Below are positions 546-48,008 of a stretch of DNA of 50,596 nucleotides, in pieces. This DNA is from Escherichia phage vB-EcoS-XT34. Position 1 is the stretch's first letter, and each line of letters starts with the position of its first letter. The DNA is taken from sequence record OR767160; one strand, written 5' to 3'. The translations under genes and the position numbers were made by a program. The notes below the pieces were generated by a model. The model had not been told where the DNA came from. It was given only the letters and a program-made list of their open reading frames with translations, and did not search any database.

Positions 546-574
546 TTGATAACATGTAACCACGCTGGTAGTAT
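546..574 (+). promoter_or_regulatory. candidate sigma70 early promoter (TTGATA-17-TAGTAT)
   Basis: -35 TTGATA at 546-551, 17-nt spacer, -10 TAGTAT at 569-574 preceded by TGg; sits upstream of the first + strand gene at 617. Confidence 0.45.
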
Positions 575-616: not shown

Positions 617-1138
617 ATGTCAAATCATAATCAACACGTAAGCCTGGGCGATGTCGTCCGCTACATGGCGGAGCAGGCTCTTAAGGCCGACGACCGAACT
701 TTCCATGTCCCAATCCATCTAATAGCTCGCCAGGTTTACGGCCTCACATCTAGTGATATAGGAGGCATAAGTCGTGAGGATCTGGATGTAGGTGGCAAGT
801 ACAGTATGGCAAAGCTGAAGCCGTCATATGTCGCCAATACGGTAGCCAGGATGCCAGAGATACAGGCGGCAAACGTTCGTGCAAAATTTTCAATTAAGGA
901 TGGTGATTTCGGTGATGACGTCGAGGTTCGGTGTGCTTATCTGTCTTTGGTTGATGGCGCAATCCAGACAGGAAAGCGAGTGAAGGCAAACTGCCAGATT
1001 GCAGAGAAGGCTGTGAGCGACTTTAAGGTCAAAATACTCAAGCTGATGCCATCCGTGACTAACTTTGAGGGCGATGAGATTACAGGAGCCATCAAGGCAA
1101 TCAAAATGTACCAGGAAATGATTAGGGAGACGAAATAA
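617..1138 (+). CDS. hypothetical early protein
   Basis: 173-aa ORF, first gene of the rightward early block, stop overlaps the next start (ATGA-type coupling). Confidence 0.5.
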   Translation: MSNHNQHVSLGDVVRYMAEQALKADDRTFHVPIHLIARQVYGLTSSDIGGISREDLDVGGKYSMAKLKPSYVANTVARMPEIQAANVRAKFSIKDGDFGDDVEVRCAYLSLVDGAIQTGKRVKANCQIAEKAVSDFKVKILKLMPSVTNFEGDEITGAIKAIKMYQEMIRETK

Positions 1139-1701
1139 TGGGGATGTTTGATTTTAACGAAGAGAAGCTGACAGATGAGCAGATTATGAAGATTGCTACG
1201 GAAGATGGGCTTCCACCACTACGAGTTGCAATCAATGCTAACGGATACCGACAGTCACAAAAGTACTGGTGCGAATTAGAAGTTATGCGTCGCGCAAACC
1301 TAAATCGTGAACAATGCGTCGTGGTTGAAAAGATCTGGAAGCAAGCGATAAATGGAAAAGGCGTTGTGGGAGTTCGCTCAACATATGAGGCGATCAGAAA
1401 GGTCCAGCCGTTCGTCGAGCGTAATGGAGTAATGAATAACCTGATTGACAATATCCTACCATCACTACAGGACGCGGGAATCATTTGCCTTATTGGTGAC
1501 AAGATATATGCACACCCATACCTGGTGGGCATGTATGGGAGAGACATTCACAAGTGGTGCGACTCATGGAGATCGGTTGAGCGCAAATCTCATAGCAAAT
1601 TGCAGTCAAGCTCAGACATGATTCATGGCTATGATGCCGATGAGGTGGAGAAGGCCATCCAGTTCTACCGGAAAGCGAAATCTCTCCTGAACGGTGAATA
1701 G
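1138..1701 (+). CDS. hypothetical protein, mini-paralog of the 527-aa protein at 46425-48008
   Basis: N-terminus MFDFNEEKL..LPPLRVAINANGYRQSQ and central NGKGVVGVRSTYEA..CLIGDKIY match the N- and C-terminal ends of the 527-aa protein; stop TAG lies inside the box motif. Confidence 0.6.
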   Translation: MGMFDFNEEKLTDEQIMKIATEDGLPPLRVAINANGYRQSQKYWCELEVMRRANLNREQCVVVEKIWKQAINGKGVVGVRSTYEAIRKVQPFVERNGVMNNLIDNILPSLQDAGIICLIGDKIYAHPYLVGMYGRDIHKWCDSWRSVERKSHSKLQSSSDMIHGYDADEVEKAIQFYRKAKSLLNGE

Positions 1702-9130: not shown

Positions 9131-10720
9131 ATGTCTAACAAGATATTGATTTGGGAAGATCTGACACCAAAGGAAAAGGCGGTAATAAAGGTGATGAGCG
9201 AAAGGTCGTTTAGTGACTTTATGCGCATATGGTTCGCGCTGATACAGGCTCAGAAGTTTAGATCTAACTGGCACTTCAACTACCTTTGCTGGAAGGTTGA
9301 GCAGATAATCAACGGTGAGATACAAAACATCATATTCAACATCACTCCAGGCTCCGGTAAGACTGAGATATTCTCTATACACATGCCAGTTTATTGCATG
9401 TTCAGAAGCGAGAAGATAAGGAACCTGAACCTATCGTTCTCTGATAGTTTGGTGAAGGATAACGGGATCAGGACTCGTGAAATTATAGGATCGGATGAGT
9501 TTCAGGAGCTGTGGCCATGCAAACTAGCCAAGGCGTCTGGTGGTGATATTACCGCTCTAAACCAAAAGGAAAAGGCATGGCTAACTCTAACCTCTCGCGC
9601 GATCGGTGGTCAGGTAACTGGTAAGCGTGGCGGTTATATGGATGATGGCTTCACCGGAATGCTGACGCTTGATGACCCTGAGAAGCCGAAAGACCTATAC
9701 TCAGCAGTAAAGAGAAAGGCTGGTCATACGCTGTTAAAGAACACCGTTCGATCGCGAAGAATGAATGACAAGACACCATGCGTTGTTGTCCAGCAGCGGC
9801 TACACGTAAACGATGCGACTTGGTTCCTGATGAATGGCGGTATGGGTGGGATGAAGTTTGAACAGGTAATCATTCCGGCGCTGGTAACTGAGGAATATAG
9901 AGACACGCTTCCTGACTGGTTGAAAGAGGAATTTGACAGAGACGTGCTATCGTCCCCATCGGTAATGATTGACGGTGTTGAGCACTTCTCTTTCTGGCCT
10001 GCGAAGGAAAGCGCAGAAAGCCTACTGGCGTTGCGCGAAGCTGACCTGTACACATTTGAGTCTCAGTATCAGCAGAAGCCAATCGCGCTTGGCGGTAACG
10101 CGTTTAAGTCGGACTGGTTCCAGTATTACGGCGACGGCGAAAAAGCCAACATGCCAAAACCGGATCGCTTCGAATACCTTTTTACCACTGCGGATACTGC
10201 GCAGAAGGCCGAGGAAATTCACGACTACAGCGTCTTTGTTTTGTGGGGCAAGTATAAGGATCGCGTATATTTCATCGACGGCATTCGCGGTAAGTGGGAA
10301 GCGCCGGAACTTGAAAAGATGGCCCTTAAGTTTTATGGCAACTGCTTCAAATGGGCGAAGGATAACAAGACTTCACTGCGCAAGGTTTACATTGAAGACA
10401 AGGCGAGCGGTACTGGCCTGATCCAGTCAATCAACAAGAAACTACCGATTGACATTACGCCAGTTCAGCGAAATACGGATAAGGTAACTCGCGCAATGGA
10501 CGCGGCGCCAATCATGAAAGCGGGGCGCTGTGTTTTTCCCGAGTCTCACGAAATGTTAAGTGACATGGAGGTTGAGTTGGTTTCATTCACGTTTGATGAT
10601 TCATCTCCTCACGATGACATTTGCGATAACGTCTTTGATGCTGTAAACTTTGAGATGAACATGTTGGATGATCCAGTATCTAGAATGAAGCGTTTAGCCG
10701 GATTAAGTAAGGGGATGTAA
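9131..10720 (+). CDS. terL: terminase large subunit
   Basis: 529 aa, N-terminal ATPase with Walker A TPGSGKT, C-terminal acidic nuclease-like region, followed by portal gene. Confidence 0.85.
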   Translation: MSNKILIWEDLTPKEKAVIKVMSERSFSDFMRIWFALIQAQKFRSNWHFNYLCWKVEQIINGEIQNIIFNITPGSGKTEIFSIHMPVYCMFRSEKIRNLNLSFSDSLVKDNGIRTREIIGSDEFQELWPCKLAKASGGDITALNQKEKAWLTLTSRAIGGQVTGKRGGYMDDGFTGMLTLDDPEKPKDLYSAVKRKAGHTLLKNTVRSRRMNDKTPCVVVQQRLHVNDATWFLMNGGMGGMKFEQVIIPALVTEEYRDTLPDWLKEEFDRDVLSSPSVMIDGVEHFSFWPAKESAESLLALREADLYTFESQYQQKPIALGGNAFKSDWFQYYGDGEKANMPKPDRFEYLFTTADTAQKAEEIHDYSVFVLWGKYKDRVYFIDGIRGKWEAPELEKMALKFYGNCFKWAKDNKTSLRKVYIEDKASGTGLIQSINKKLPIDITPVQRNTDKVTRAMDAAPIMKAGRCVFPESHEMLSDMEVELVSFTFDDSSPHDDICDNVFDAVNFEMNMLDDPVSRMKRLAGLSKGM

Positions 10721-30508: not shown

Positions 30509-30585
30509 TTGTATACACGTAACCAATGTAACTCGATGTATACAATCCCATCCGCGAGAAATGATATACGCACTGTTACGCCAAT

Positions 30586-30670
30586 TTACGCAATGGTTAC
30601 ATTAAAATATCTATATATATCAACCTTTTACTCTTATTATTATTATTATATATATTAATGTGTATATCAT
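30586..30670 (+). repeat. AT-rich element shared with 251-350
   Basis: 26-nt core TTACGCAATGGTTACATTAAAATATC, one mismatch to the copy at 251-276, followed by TATATAT and (TTA)n tracts. Confidence 0.7.
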
Positions 30671-30880
30671 GTAACTACTTCTATAGAGTGTTCCGCTTAT
30701 AAATTTCTAATATGTACATTTATACAGTATTTAATCACAAGCATACCAATGCACCCTCCGCCAGAAGCGATATACACTATATACACGCTATTTACATCTA
30801 GCTATAGCTGGGCAGGATAGCCATTTTATGTAACTAGCTCCAATGTATACACATGATTACAGATACATGCACGTAACCTA

Positions 30881-30941: not shown

Positions 30942-31982
30942 ATGACCAAGCCACCGTTTCAATACTTCACGTCAGAAGAAATGAGCAACGACTTTTACCA
31001 CAGCAAAGATGAGTGGACATCAGAGTATGTATCAGGCTCATCACTCAGTAAGATCCATAGCACTTGTCCGGCAGCCTGGAAGTTTGAAATGAACTCGACG
31101 ACTAAGGCACTGGTCTTCGGTACGCAGTCGCATACCAACTTTGAGAGCAAAGCACTGTTTGAGCGTCAGTATCGCCGCGCACCGAAAGAAAGCGAGATTG
31201 AAAACGTGATCACTAGTCAGGCAGCATTGGCAACGAAATTAAAATCATTTGGCCTGACTGGTACAAGCGGTAAGCAATATCCAGAACTGATCAAGATGAT
31301 GGTTGATTGCGGCGAAGACCTCAACGTCATGTGGCTGATTGATATGATCGCACAATGTCAGGCGTGGGCCGATGGCGTGGAACTGGTTAAGGCGGAAGAC
31401 TACGACGCTTGCGTAAGTATGCGCCAAGTTCTTGAAATGATTCCTGAACATAACTCTTGCATGAACAGCGAGACGGCATTCCGTGAGTATTCTTTGTTCG
31501 GCGTAATCTGTGGCGTTAAAGTCAAGGTGCGACTTGACCATGTTGACATCATTAATGATCCAGAAGCCATCCGGCGCATGGGTTACGATCCTGAGATTCA
31601 CCCTGAAATCGTCGTCATCACTGATTACAAAACGACAATGAGCGCCAACCCGACCGAGTTCCCGCGCATGGCGTTCAACCTTGGATATTACCTCAAGATG
31701 GCATTGCAGCGTGACCTGTTCGTTAAATGCTTTGAGGAAACGCGACCTGTGGTTGTGCGCTTGCTGGCCCAGGAGAAGAAAGAACCTTACTTGCCTATGG
31801 CGTACCGCATGAGTAGCGATCAGCTTAAGATTGGTCGTGCGCAGTACATGAGCGTTATTCATACTTTCTCAATGTGCGAAGCGAATGACGTATGGCCTTC
31901 ATACAGCAACGGCGAACCAGAGATTGAGCTTGAGACTCCTGACTGGATTATGAAACAGTTCAAGCACATTCTGGAATCGTAG
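30942..31982 (+). CDS. recombination exonuclease (PD-(D/E)XK, RecB/lambda Exo-like)
   Basis: 346 aa, ITDYKTT motif; adjacent to Erf and SSB genes. Confidence 0.55.
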   Translation: MTKPPFQYFTSEEMSNDFYHSKDEWTSEYVSGSSLSKIHSTCPAAWKFEMNSTTKALVFGTQSHTNFESKALFERQYRRAPKESEIENVITSQAALATKLKSFGLTGTSGKQYPELIKMMVDCGEDLNVMWLIDMIAQCQAWADGVELVKAEDYDACVSMRQVLEMIPEHNSCMNSETAFREYSLFGVICGVKVKVRLDHVDIINDPEAIRRMGYDPEIHPEIVVITDYKTTMSANPTEFPRMAFNLGYYLKMALQRDLFVKCFEETRPVVVRLLAQEKKEPYLPMAYRMSSDQLKIGRAQYMSVIHTFSMCEANDVWPSYSNGEPEIELETPDWIMKQFKHILES

Positions 31983-35610: not shown

Positions 35611-36552
35611 TTATGAATACTTATCTATCAGATCCTGCGGCGTATATAGCTTTCGCTCAAGTCCCATCTTGAAATTTCCACTGTTCGGCACGACAACTTT
35701 TAAATCCCTCTCGTCAGCCATGTAAAGCGTTCGCAAATCATCCGCTGTACACGCTACTCTCAACTCCCGATCGCCATGATAGCGATAAGCAACAATCTCA
35801 AGGTTCTCAGGGGAGAAAGTCACCCACACTTCCTGACTGGTCGCCATCTTCACACGATAACCATCAATCAGATCGCTTGTCATATATATAGCTGCATCAG
35901 CCTCGCCACTCCCCAGCTTAACCACTGAGCCGCGAGAATAATCACGCGCAAGGAAAGTGTATTCGCCATTATCATAAGCAAACATGACGTTACACATATC
36001 CTCATCAATTCCGTCATGGTGGACCATGTAGCACGGTAGTGCGTGTATTAGCTCCTCAGTGCCATTCTGACGCACTTTTACGCCAACATCATACGAATCC
36101 TCAGTTAGGCACTCATACACGCTTAAATCGGTGCTCTCGCGCTTTTCTGTGCGCTCCATTACAGCCACGCACGACTCATGATCCGCCATCTTGCCAAGGC
36201 CTTTCTCCGGTACGCGTGATACCCTGCGGTAAGCCTTCGACTTATAATCCTGTGGCACTTTGCCAAGGAATCGACCGAGAATATTAATCACTTCACTGTA
36301 AGGCTCACCAGTCAGCTTCATCATCCAGCCAACACCGGAGTCGTTACCGCACTGGTTACAGATTGCTCCACCGTCACCAGGGGAGTTAATGTTATCAGTC
36401 CAGCGGAAGCGATCAGATCCTCCACAGTGAGGGCACATCTGGTGCTTCTTATTGAACACGATGGACTGCAAACCACAAATTGACTGTAAGGCTTCTCGCC
36501 ATAACCCCTTCATATATGGCAGAACTTCTTCTTTCTGATACACCTCATTCAC
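35611..36552 (-). CDS. DNA primase (zinc-binding plus Toprim-like)
   Basis: 313 aa with CPHCGG..CNQCG zinc-ribbon motif near the N-terminus. Confidence 0.55.
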   Translation of the reverse strand: MNEVYQKEEVLPYMKGLWREALQSICGLQSIVFNKKHQMCPHCGGSDRFRWTDNINSPGDGGAICNQCGNDSGVGWMMKLTGEPYSEVINILGRFLGKVPQDYKSKAYRRVSRVPEKGLGKMADHESCVAVMERTEKRESTDLSVYECLTEDSYDVGVKVRQNGTEELIHALPCYMVHHDGIDEDMCNVMFAYDNGEYTFLARDYSRGSVVKLGSGEADAAIYMTSDLIDGYRVKMATSQEVWVTFSPENLEIVAYRYHGDRELRVACTADDLRTLYMADERDLKVVVPNSGNFKMGLERKLYTPQDLIDKYS

Positions 36553-44448: not shown

Positions 44449-44949
44449 ATGAAGCAGAAGCTTGTAATTAGTGCGGCGACGGCTGCAGCAATATACATTG
44501 CAGCACCGATCATTGAGCTTGTAGAAGGCGTGGAGAACAAGCCATACATGGACATTGCTGGAGTGCCTACGGTCTGCGCTGGAGTTACTGGCTCCGATGT
44601 GATATGGGGCAAGAGCTACAGTAACAGGGAGTGCCGGAACTTGCTGGAGAAGCACATTCAGATTCATGGCAAGCATGTGCAGAATGCAGTCACCTACCCT
44701 ATATCCCCAAAGACAAGGGCGGCGCTAATCAGTTTTAGCTACAACGTTGGCGGATACGCCATGAGGAAGTCTACATCTGTAAGGCTAATTAACCAGGGTA
44801 AGGTTGAGCAGGGTTGTAAGGCTCTAGGTATGTGGACAAAAGCAAGAGTAAATGGGAGGCTTGTTACAGTAAAGGGTTTAGTAAACCGAAGGAATGAAGA
44901 GATTAAGCTATGCATTGAGGGTGAGATGGAAATGAAAAGGGGCAATTAA
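44449..44949 (+). CDS. endolysin, lysozyme-like with N-terminal signal-anchor-release (SAR)-type domain
   Basis: 166 aa; weakly hydrophobic Ala/Gly-rich N-terminus followed by E..D..T catalytic spacing (IELVEGVENKPYMDIAGVPTVC). Confidence 0.7.
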   Translation: MKQKLVISAATAAAIYIAAPIIELVEGVENKPYMDIAGVPTVCAGVTGSDVIWGKSYSNRECRNLLEKHIQIHGKHVQNAVTYPISPKTRAALISFSYNVGGYAMRKSTSVRLINQGKVEQGCKALGMWTKARVNGRLVTVKGLVNRRNEEIKLCIEGEMEMKRGN

Positions 44950-45476
44950 GCCCCGTGATTTTCGTGAAAGCCTAGCTCCATCTCTGCGGCTTTTCTAGCT
45001 AAGACTGCATCATCGAATGAGTCTCCGTAGTAAAGCCGCTTATTCTTGCCATTAATTTTTATCTGAGAGAACCATTTACCCCTTGCTGAGTCCCAGCACA
45101 CACCAACGACTCCGGATGTATTTAAAGAAGACATTGGCATGTTCATTTCCTGATCAGACCTTGATGCCAGTCTTAGGTTTTCAATTCTATTATCATCCTT
45201 AATGTGGTTTATATGATCGATCTCTATACCATCAGGTATCTGGCCTTTGTGCATTTCCCATATAATCCTATGCACCTTCCTGTACCTGTTGTTAAATCTA
45301 ACCAATAGGTATCCATGTTTATCTGGAGTTCCAACCATTTTTCCGGCATTTCTTGAGTTGTACTGATTGCTCATGTCATCACGACGCTTCCTCCATAAAT
45401 TATTTCCGTCATAATGAAAGTATTTTGACCAGTTCATGTATACTATCCTCTCTAGTTTCATTTCATCAACAATCAT
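44946..45476 (-). CDS. HNH homing endonuclease with AP2-like domain (copy 6)
   Basis: HRIIWEM..IDHINHIKDDNRIENLRLAS and FDDAVLARKAAEMELGFHENHG; on the opposite strand, between endolysin and spanin genes. Confidence 0.75.
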   Translation of the reverse strand: MIVDEMKLERIVYMNWSKYFHYDGNNLWRKRRDDMSNQYNSRNAGKMVGTPDKHGYLLVRFNNRYRKVHRIIWEMHKGQIPDGIEIDHINHIKDDNRIENLRLASRSDQEMNMPMSSLNTSGVVGVCWDSARGKWFSQIKINGKNKRLYYGDSFDDAVLARKAAEMELGFHENHGA

Positions 45477-45493: not shown

Positions 45494-45883
45494 ATGTTTT
45501 TGCAAAAAATGCTATTATGCTCTGTAATTCTGCTTTCAGGTTGTTCGGCGACATCTGCGCTGACTGGTTTAATTGGCAGCAAGCCAGAAATCAGTGCGCA
45601 GGCTGGGGCTGAGAACGTGAAGCAAACGGTAGGTGTTACAGGAAAGGTGGATAAGTCAAACGACAACGACACCACTATCAAAGATTCAAAGGTAGGAAAG
45701 GTTGATACGTCAAACGGGAAATCTGTCAGCACATCAAGCATCAAGGCTGACACTATCGTTGCTGATAAGATTGAAATAAGGAATGATGAAGGAGGTGGAA
45801 GGATTGCGTTTGGACTTGCTTTAATTCTAATTAGCCTATTGCTTTTCTCATTTACAATATGGACTACTTTTCGCAAAAAATAA
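45494..45883 (+). CDS. unimolecular spanin (u-spanin) candidate
   Basis: N-terminal lipoprotein signal with lipobox LLSGC-S and a single C-terminal transmembrane helix, as in the phage T1 u-spanin. Confidence 0.55.
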   Translation: MFLQKMLLCSVILLSGCSATSALTGLIGSKPEISAQAGAENVKQTVGVTGKVDKSNDNDTTIKDSKVGKVDTSNGKSVSTSSIKADTIVADKIEIRNDEGGGRIAFGLALILISLLLFSFTIWTTFRKK

Positions 45884-45886
45884 AAG

Positions 45887-45910
45887 GAGCCGAAAGGCTC
45901 CCTTTTTTTA
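45887..45910 (+). terminator. rho-independent terminator
   Basis: ggagcc-gaaa-ggctcc followed by CTTTTTTT; same hairpin as at 15088. Confidence 0.7.
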
Positions 45911-46424: not shown

Positions 46425-48008
46425 TTACCCCAGCAGTCGCGGATTAATGTAAATCTTATCACCAATCAGGCACGTATAGTTCTTCTCATCCAGCATAGGG
46501 ATCAGGTGATCTTTGATGCGAGTCATTACGCCACTTTGCCCTTCAAAGGGCTTAACCTTACGAGCCGCTTCATATAGTGATCGGACACCTACAACGCCTT
46601 TCCCGTTCTTACCTTGCTTGATCAGAATGTCGATCAGCTTATTCATCTCCGCATGGTCGCCAGCATGACCAGCAGCGTTTGCAGATGACAGATAAGTCTT
46701 ACTCAGTTCCTGGAACATAATTACCGCTTCCTGCATTGTGTCAAGCTCAATCTCTCTGGACTTCTGCGGACTCCCGCCATTGGGATTAAACCAGTTACGC
46801 ACAGTGTGAAGAACAGCCGCGATCCTGATAGCCTGCTTATCGAACTTACCCAGCGCGCCGCGAAGCATTGTGTGTGAATACTTCCCGCCGTCCGCAAGGT
46901 GAGGTTCCATATCCTGACGCGCACGGTTGAGATATTTCATCGCCGATGTGCTCACTGTCAGATTGACTTTGTGTTCGCTCATGATCTCATGGACCAGACG
47001 GAAGTAGTCCGCCTTGAGTCCGCCATCAATCGGCTCGTATGTTGATTCGCCTTTTTCGTCAACGAATACACGCTCGCCAAGGAATGACTTCTCACGCACA
47101 AGCAAGAAACGTTCTGACACACCGATACCACGCGCACCAGCATTCATGATCGCGTTGATTGTTTCATCCTGTGCAATTACAGAGATGCAACCCATCGCAA
47201 TAAAGCTCATGTTATTGTCTGCGTTTGCACGCGCGATAGATACGTTTCCAGCATCCCATGCTTTCAGCACAAGCTCGCTGTTCGTTTTCTTTGAGCCGTC
47301 ACCATAGGTCATGCCTAAAAGTGAGTTCACGCTCGTTGCTTCATCCGAGATCACAGAGAAATTACCCTGGCGGTTGTTGATTCGTGCAAGACCTTCCGGC
47401 GTGGTGTCGGATACGGGGAATACGATGTCACAAAGGCGTTCCAGTTTTTCTTCCAGTTCTTCTTTTTCCTCAAACAGCGCCGCCATGTCAGATGGTGATT
47501 TCTCCTGCTTCATCTCCTTGGATAGAGCGGAAAGCTTAGCCATAATCTTCTTGCGGTCGCGCTTTCGGATCTCGTTGAGTCGTTCAGTCTCTGCGATCAT
47601 CGGGGCCAGCGAAAGTGAGTTAATGGCTGATTTACCTGTCGATGGTGGCTGACTGGTTACGACGTACAGCGCGGTAGGCTGTTGTGTTCCGTGATACTCA
47701 ACCGTAAATCGGCCCAGCATGGCGGCTGATATGCATCCGAGGAAATGCATGTAAGCGGACGACTCGGGGAACTGAACTGAACGAGCGGCATTGCTTGACA
47801 GCTTACCAACGACATCATAATCGTTACCAAGTGAGATAACCGGATATTTGTCACCGCCTGAGTCAATTTCTGTTGGGGCTTTCCAGAACGACTGGCTCTG
47901 CCTGTACCCATTCGCATTAATGGCAACGCGCAAAGGCGGCAGGTTGTCGGCAGCGGCTACAGCCATTACCTGATCGATTGACAATTTATCTTCGTTGAAA
48001 TCAAACAT
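46425..48008 (-). CDS. large P-loop-like protein of unknown function (candidate NTPase)
   Basis: 527 aa, deviant Walker A PPSTGKS and Walker B-like VISDE; N- and C-terminal segments shared with the 187-aa protein at 1138-1701. Confidence 0.6.
   Translation of the reverse strand: MFDFNEDKLSIDQVMAVAAADNLPPLRVAINANGYRQSQSFWKAPTEIDSGGDKYPVISLGNDYDVVGKLSSNAARSVQFPESSAYMHFLGCISAAMLGRFTVEYHGTQQPTALYVVTSQPPSTGKSAINSLSLAPMIAETERLNEIRKRDRKKIMAKLSALSKEMKQEKSPSDMAALFEEKEELEEKLERLCDIVFPVSDTTPEGLARINNRQGNFSVISDEATSVNSLLGMTYGDGSKKTNSELVLKAWDAGNVSIARANADNNMSFIAMGCISVIAQDETINAIMNAGARGIGVSERFLLVREKSFLGERVFVDEKGESTYEPIDGGLKADYFRLVHEIMSEHKVNLTVSTSAMKYLNRARQDMEPHLADGGKYSHTMLRGALGKFDKQAIRIAAVLHTVRNWFNPNGGSPQKSREIELDTMQEAVIMFQELSKTYLSSANAAGHAGDHAEMNKLIDILIKQGKNGKGVVGVRSLYEAARKVKPFEGQSGVMTRIKDHLIPMLDEKNYTCLIGDKIYINPRLLG

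Follow-up and report, generated by a model that had tools for sequence, protein, structure and literature searches.

What is the role of a small phage gene that encodes both ends of the phage's own replicative helicase and omits the motor between them? The question is raised by Escherichia phage vB-EcoS-XT34 (sequence record OR767160), of which all 50,596 nucleotides were analysed; this stretch, hereafter called the window, is the complete 50.6-kb genome of a T1-like siphovirus (family Drexlerviridae). Most closely related to it are the Escherichia phages P817 and GaoY1-9D as well as Nouzillyvirus ESCO41, with DNA identities of 86-95%, and its gene order is the same as in T1 and AHP42. Two early operons diverge from a non-coding region of 717 bp that extends across the window ends. 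A DUF7174 gene (617-1138) opens the rightward operon and is directly followed by the short open reading frame (ORF) in question (1138-1701), and the leftward operon, running from approximately 50495 to 45905, includes the helicase ORF of 527 residues (46425-48008). On the circular map the starts of the two genes are about 3.7 kb apart and face away from each other. The ATG at 1138 overlaps the stop codon of the DUF7174 gene (TAATG); in most homologues of the short protein the start is MFDF, equivalent to the ATG at 1144. As judged from its sequence, the short gene is an old duplicate of the helicase termini, which has lost the NTPase core and is kept by protein-level selection.

The first-pass annotation of the window had described the short protein as a mini-paralog that retains only the two ends of the long one and lacks a central part of 340 residues with the Walker motifs, and it had attributed the pair to an old duplication under protein-level selection and not to an assembly artefact. 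The two-segment paralogy is borne out by BLASTP, in which residues 3-44 of the short protein align with residues 1-42 of the helicase (30 of 42 identical, 71%, E 4e-20) and residues 40-131 with residues 436-527 (41 of 92 identical, 45%, E 4e-23). Since both alignments are ungapped and their statistics are composition-adjusted, low complexity is excluded as the source of the similarity. In a profile-profile comparison of 58 short-family with 51 helicase-family sequences, residues 57-131 of the short protein are aligned to residues 453-527 of the helicase with 99.3% probability (E 6e-21). Common to both proteins are PLRVAINANGYRQS as well as the patterns KG..G.RS.YEA.RKV.PF and CLIGDKIY.(N/H)P. 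Walker A (QPPSTGKS, residues 120-127) and Walker B (VISDEAT, residues 219-225) are confined to the long protein, as had been stated. The short protein, from which the entire AAA+ core is absent and for which there is no Pfam match, is a paralog of the helicase termini and itself no helicase. In two respects the earlier description has to be amended. The loss of the core stands, its size does not, as about 393-410 residues are gone; and both ends are indeed kept, though not they alone, since residues 132-187 form a conserved tail without a counterpart in the helicase.

At the DNA level the two genes are strongly diverged. The longest exact match between them is 11 nucleotides, and the same codon is used at 9 of 27 identical residues in the N-terminal and at 13 of 34 in the C-terminal segment. 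According to the method of Nei and Gojobori the proportion of synonymous differences (pS) between the paralogues is 0.73-0.97 and thus saturated, and the ratio of nonsynonymous to synonymous substitution rates (dN/dS), where computable, is about 0.15-0.18 and not near 1. Saturation of the synonymous sites is seen in each of the 11 same-genome pairs, i.e. in the window and in ten other phage genomes with both genes, which together with the 11-nucleotide longest shared word rules out recent gene conversion as well as an assembly artefact. An excess divergence of the N-terminal segment (pS 0.97) was also considered and dismissed, as the count of 9 in 27 same codons corresponds to random expectation. 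Despite the saturated synonymous sites, the N-module of the short protein is 64-79% identical to that of the helicase, and the short family has likewise kept those residues that form the structural core of the helicase winged helix. Both the age of the duplication and the selection on its protein product, as proposed in the first-pass annotation, are thereby upheld.

A family search identified the long protein. Its residues 81-430 match Pfam PF13148 (DUF3987) with E 4.5e-39 and 135 bits against a cut-off of 27, and it matches phrog_2373 'DNA helicase' with E 2e-255. By these assignments it is a DUF3987 / superfamily 6 (SF6) MCM-like replicative helicase, with helicase activity itself being predicted. 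One distant PriCT-DUF3987 protein is a 5'-3' helicase, which unwinds DNA in an ATP-dependent manner and binds its own primase (PMC11724360). In the window the primase is encoded apart from the helicase (35611-36552) and harbors the zinc ribbon of primase-helicases; this stand-alone primase may be the common partner of the module shared by both paralogues. In a comparison of 51 Drexlerviridae helicases, evolution is fastest in the first 42 residues and in the winged helix (mean column identity 0.34-0.43 versus 0.60 for the core), a pattern that would be expected of specificity or docking modules. In a partial Mantel test the N-module and the winged helix of the helicase are correlated (r 0.28, p 0.0005), although not specifically, the winged helix and the linker giving r 0.36.

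The sequence of the short protein has no match in Pfam, NCBIfam or the PDB, and the sole Pfam match of its isolated segments is MCM_C, with E 0.16 below threshold. Residues 3-187 cover the complete phrog_7327 profile (1-179 of 179 positions, E 1.1e-77), a family with no annotated function. In a search of 5.8 billion proteins 272 relatives were found, the best 120 clusters of which comprise proteins of 119-192 residues, many of them on contigs of 45-52 kb, the size of Drexlerviridae genomes. All structural statements made here rest on AlphaFold monomer models. The short protein is modelled with a predicted local distance difference test score (pLDDT) of 84, exceeding 90 at residues 10-140. Its N-terminal end consists of a disordered MFDF peptide and three short helices (13-43) and is followed by a canonical winged helix (helix 57-72, strand 76-78, helices 79-86 and 98-112, hairpin 116-125), a less confident region and a final helix (167-184). 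The order of elements is that of a winged helix, and structural matches to solved winged helices are found.

The last tail helix, HGYDADEVEKAIQFYRKAKSLLNGE, is the best-conserved stretch of the short family, with a mean pairwise column identity of 0.76. Residues 157-183 of the tail match single TPR-like units of large CHAT/TPR proteins, with E down to 6e-15 through multiple stretches. With the tail as sole query, 1.8 billion representative proteins yielded, beyond its own family, only such single TPR-like units, and neither the gene that follows the helicase nor any other part of the window contains a relative of the tail. A classification as TPR repeat protein was rejected, as the tail has one unit only, instead of tandem helical hairpins of 34 residues, and no Pfam TPR match. 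A variant group (L013, L014 and Klebsiella phage Opt-79) contains a different tail of similar character.

Among GenBank phages 801 records match the short protein, mostly via the helicase C-terminus, and only 104 contain a near full-length copy. The carriers that were checked belong to the Braunvirinae (Bas01 AugustePiccard, Bas03 JulesPiccard and Veterinaerplatzvirus), the Rogunavirinae (AHP42 and Opt-79) and Nouzillyvirus, and the copies in all of them are annotated as hypothetical protein. In a screen of 94 helicase-containing loci, with the helicase termini of each locus as query, the mini-paralog was found only together with helicases of the MFDFNEDK or MFDFNDDK type, which are at least 90% identical to the window helicase. 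About 40 loci with sufficient flanking DNA and a helicase of another type, T1 and Klebsiella Webervirus among them, yielded none. Within the Drexlerviridae the duplication is thus limited to a single clade of helicases. It is to the winged helix of this clade that each of the short ones is most similar (25-69% identity), a neighbour-joining tree of about 75 residues places the short proteins in one group, on long branches, and in the most helicase-like variants even the helix preceding the winged helix is still alignable (DTLKAIDILIKQG versus EMNKLIDILIKQG). On the grounds of this single tree group, the affinity to one clade and the alignable helix, the simplest history would be one duplication, followed by a single in-frame deletion of roughly residues 45-448.

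T1 does not contain the mini-paralog, and the slot is occupied by the 108-residue ST76 (L003 1127-1453). The first six residues of ST76 and of the T1 helicase ST9 (L003 44517-46085), MFNIKP, are identical (16 of 18 nucleotides), with no similarity thereafter. No second case was found among 20,880 ATG starts in the 94 loci, and such a match is absent from three other Tunavirinae-like phages. The shared peptide may be the recombination scar of a lost paralog, or chance; co-variation of the N-terminal peptides as a general rule was discarded, T1 ST76 having no similar case in the 94 loci.

Compared over the same genome pairs, dN/dS is 0.15-0.43 for the short gene versus 0.01-0.06 for the helicase gene, and the short gene evolves 5-10 times faster. 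Among the short orthologues dN/dS is below 1 throughout, with synonymous divergence (dS) up to saturation. Selection gives the strongest clue to the mechanism. Since the N-module and the core of the winged helix are conserved at synonymous saturation, both proteins are held to the same sequence features, for which a shared ligand would be the simplest reason. Purifying selection on both kept modules thus suggests that the short protein most likely binds the partner of the helicase termini, and its expression from an early operon together with the missing motor would argue for an action in trans on loading or coupling. We tentatively prefer, with a little less than half of our confidence, that the short protein is a trans-acting copy of the docking module, which competes with the helicase for its partner or bridges to it, the tail possibly recruiting a second factor.

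In such a scenario the deletion within a duplicated DUF3987 helicase gene would have removed the whole AAA+ motor and joined the N-terminal helical module straight to the C-terminal winged helix, and a new tail of 56 residues would have been added. Made from the early rightward operon, the short protein would still bind whatever the terminal module of the helicase binds, candidates being the separately encoded primase, a replisome or loading factor of the host, the helicase ring by way of winged-helix contacts, or DNA. Having no motor of its own, it would influence the loading or coupling of the helicase in trans, either by competition, which would make it a negative regulator, or as an adaptor whose tail brings in a second factor; the binding partner and the positive or negative sign of the effect we infer. 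The first-pass annotation had suggested that the short form, with the interaction surfaces but not the NTPase core, could serve as a regulator or decoy of the long form. As a class of explanation the regulator or competitor is the best supported one and, by analogy with the precedents discussed below, plausible.

Several observations weigh against this reading. The helicases of the window and ESCO41 are 99% identical (dS 0.29), the short proteins only 56% (dS about 2.0), from which it follows that the left-end module has been exchanged horizontally; carrier helicases are 90-99% identical while their short proteins are 44-100% identical. The dS values of the short gene and the helicase gene are unequal between the same genome pair, and variable N-module positions are unmatched within genomes; no co-evolution of the short protein with the helicase allele was found. 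The short winged helix has diverged so far in some lineages that its identity with that of the helicase is 25-30%, and the shared specificity has therefore possibly been lost in these lineages. The gene is absent from most Drexlerviridae, T1 and Webervirus among them, and it is also missing in a Shigella Sd1-like phage (L026/L040) with the same helicase type. In-frame stops are found in two IMG/VR contigs (L015, about 892-1411, and L020, about 9946-10532), and in L010 (8670-9092) and L016 (10000-10422) the protein is cut to 140 residues, whereby the conserved terminal helix is lost. These stops and shortened copies show repeated decay of the mini-paralog. Because it is absent, interrupted or shortened in relatives, the short protein is no core replication factor; it is a selected but dispensable accessory early protein. 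The position after the DUF7174 gene, which holds unrelated small genes in other Drexlerviridae, is a hypervariable early-gene slot.

Among the other explanations a neofunctionalised DNA-binding protein, i.e. a transcription factor or a binder of the origin or of the packaging initiation (pac) region without any functional link to the helicase left, is considered unlikely. The winged-helix domain has a net charge of about +4 in both the short and the helicase family, yet helix 98-112, which occupies the canonical recognition position, is neutral to acidic (mean -1.7), and the N-module is acidic. A helix-turn-helix-like unit could be formed by its three short helices and their conserved N-G turn, but no Pfam helix-turn-helix or winged-helix DNA-binding family was matched. 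The gene adjoins the inter-operon region, which is rich in short repeats and contains an AT-rich element, and the winged helices of the Rep proteins of Staphylococcus aureus pathogenicity islands (SaPI) bind iterons (PMC9371898); the local repeats (TGTAGGAA and others), however, do not co-vary with the type of the short protein.

Improbable, and ranked below a DNA-binding role, is a decoy or mimic in phage conflicts, by which an immediate-early, motor-less copy of the exposed helicase termini would titrate a host defence sensor, or a factor of a satellite or competitor phage, aimed at the helicase. The gene occupies the second slot of the first-transcribed left-end operon, which is filled by unrelated genes elsewhere in the family, and its rapid evolution relative to the helicase, its horizontal exchange independent of the helicase, its patchy presence and its pseudogenes would all be in line with such a function. 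Fast evolution, independent exchange and patchy presence are typical of accessory counter-defence genes. The same pattern, however, fits a dispensable regulator under relaxed constraint equally well, dN/dS is below 1 throughout, and no defence system is known to sense this helicase. Finally, a non-functional remnant of the duplicated helicase gene on its way to loss, as might be read from the interrupted and 140-residue forms and the absence in many relatives, is very improbable and largely refuted by the selection data, with at least 120 clusters of intact proteins of about 175-190 residues, the orthologue dN/dS of 0.15-0.43 at dS up to saturation, a confidently predicted fold and an added tail that is the best-conserved part of the protein.

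The inter-operon region contains several repeated elements. An AT-rich element of 95 nucleotides (GGTTACATTAAAATATC...TATTATTATTATTAATATATAT) at 243-337, located between the divergent early operons, is repeated at 30578-30673 upstream of ORF 30942-31982 (82% identity, E 1e-19), and each copy is followed by a second shared box (ACATTGAGCTATATCTGGGG at 476-497 and ACATCTAGCTATAGCTGGGC at 30795-30817). The left-end copy of the AT-rich element is kept in ESCO41, AHP42 and T1. The repeated element is probably a shared regulatory or promoter module; it could also be an origin-like unwinding element. Positions 1-100 of the window harbor four copies of CTATTGCA in 60 nucleotides as well as the motif GATTGTTGC...GCAATGAT twice. 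The records of the window and of ESCO41 begin at the same base in this TATTGCA cluster, and that of T1 in a similar TTGCA-rich stretch; for this reason the segment is probably a pac region rather than a set of replication iterons. Direct copies of TGTAGGAA(T) and one inverted copy (CCTACA) are located at 379-433, shortly before the early promoter. The window, AHP42, L006 and L008 have this motif; ESCO41, L011, L007 and L009 do not. AHP42 and L007 have near-identical short proteins and different inter-operon repeats. An iteron hypothesis was abandoned, as neither the four TATTGCA copies nor the three to four copies of TGTAGGAA are conserved among carriers or track the type of the short protein.

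The product of the window gene at 617-1138 matches DUF7174 with E 6e-48, and this gene is kept at the same position across the Drexlerviridae. Its counterpart in T1, ST77 (L003 539-1114), is a weak DUF7174 member (E 2e-4) with a sub-threshold match to the anti-CRISPR protein AcrF2 (E 0.005); a literature search on DUF7174 returned nothing relevant. Directly after an endolysin-like ORF (44449-44949), a 176-residue ORF is located on the opposite strand (44946-45476, minus). ESCO41 has no annotated gene at the matching place, and in related phages HNH/AP2 homing endonucleases are found at various sites in this region. The ORF looks like an inserted mobile endonuclease gene. The coordinates of the features discussed are compiled in the following table.

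Table. Features of the two early operons, the paralogous pair and the primase, in window coordinates.
Feature	Position	Strand	Remarks
Sigma-70-like promoter with extended -10	546..574	+	upstream of the DUF7174/mini-paralog operon; consensus match only
DUF7174 gene	617..1138	+	173 residues; opens the rightward early operon
Mini-paralog ORF	1138..1701	+	187 residues; phrog_7327
N-module of the short protein	1144..1269	+	residues 3-44; disordered MFDF peptide, then three short helices
Winged-helix domain of the short protein	1306..1530	+	residues 57-131; homologous to helicase 453-527
Tail specific to the short protein	1531..1698	+	residues 132-187; terminal helix 157-183 at 1606-1686
Stand-alone primase	35611..36552	-	zinc ribbon of primase-helicases
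Bidirectional terminator-like hairpin	45882-45905		end of the leftward early operon
Replicative helicase (predicted activity)	46425..48008	-	527 residues; Pfam DUF3987, phrog_2373; leftward early operon
Helicase C-terminal winged helix	46428..46652	-	residues 453-527; common to the short protein
MCM-like AAA+ core	46719..47768	-	Pfam DUF3987; residues 81-430; missing in the short protein
Helicase Walker B	47334-47354	-	
Helicase Walker A	47628-47654	-	
Helicase N-module	47883..48008	-	residues 1-42; common to the short protein

MCM-like (DUF3987) helicases are widespread in phages, and their loading and regulation are poorly understood. A selected stand-alone combination of N-module and winged helix marks both modules as one functional unit, and with the short protein the partners of the helicase terminal modules can readily be sought. 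Since two E. coli K-12 phages of the BASEL collection, Bas01 and Bas03, carry the gene, its function is directly testable. Should the short protein turn out to be a decoy, it would represent a new anti-defence principle, in which a virus builds the decoy from its own essential replication protein and thereby shields the real helicase. Should it be a regulator, it would be a clear, sequence-supported addition to the type of control represented by the phage P4 proteins Cnr and alpha.

In a study attributed to Yeo and colleagues (2002, Mol Microbiol 43:855), Cnr, a proposed winged helix, is said to regulate the P4 alpha helicase via the winged-helix origin-binding domain of the latter. Like the short protein of the window, Cnr is a small stand-alone proposed winged helix, which is related to the C-terminal domain of its own helicase and acts in trans. 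P4 alpha, however, is a superfamily 3 (SF3) helicase, whereas the window helicase is MCM-like; Cnr and the origin-binding domain of alpha are remotely homologous, whereas the window pair is plainly so (45-71% identity), the helicase N-terminus included. An extra conserved tail further distinguishes the short protein, whose regulatory role would be a proposal by analogy with Cnr.

In MCM-type helicases the C-terminal winged helix serves as loading or origin-recognition interface (PMC3326298, PMC9371898). The C-terminal domain of Mcm6, for instance, binds Cdt1 (PMC3326298). In contrast to Mcm6, the phage helicase has no N-terminal OB-fold domain of the MCM type, and its short paralog is no homologue of Cdt1, with the MCM_C match reaching only E 0.16. 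The self-loading MCM-like proteins SaPI Rep, PriRep5 and SCCmec Cch differ from the window helicase in their Pfam families (DUF927 and others); no stand-alone winged-helix copy is described for them in PMC9371898, and no iterons tracking the winged-helix type were found in the window or its relatives. Shared selection, the winged-helix interface of MCM-type helicases and the precedent of P4 Cnr are the reasons why the reading as a regulator or docking copy is favoured here. A literature search, BASEL locus tags included, found no paper linking the phrog_7327 family to the helicase.

Shortened initiators that keep the binding domain and modulate the full-length protein are also found in eukaryotic viruses, namely OBPC/UL8.5 versus UL9 in herpes simplex virus 1 (HSV-1) and E8^E2 in papillomavirus. 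As in the window, a motor-less or activator-less form retains the docking or DNA-binding domain. Unlike these forms, which arise from the same gene by internal starts or splicing, the short protein of the window is encoded by a separate, anciently diverged gene on the opposite strand. Motor-less initiator forms with a binding domain are thus a known principle, of which the mini-paralog is a clear variant, supported by sequence, in an MCM-like phage helicase.
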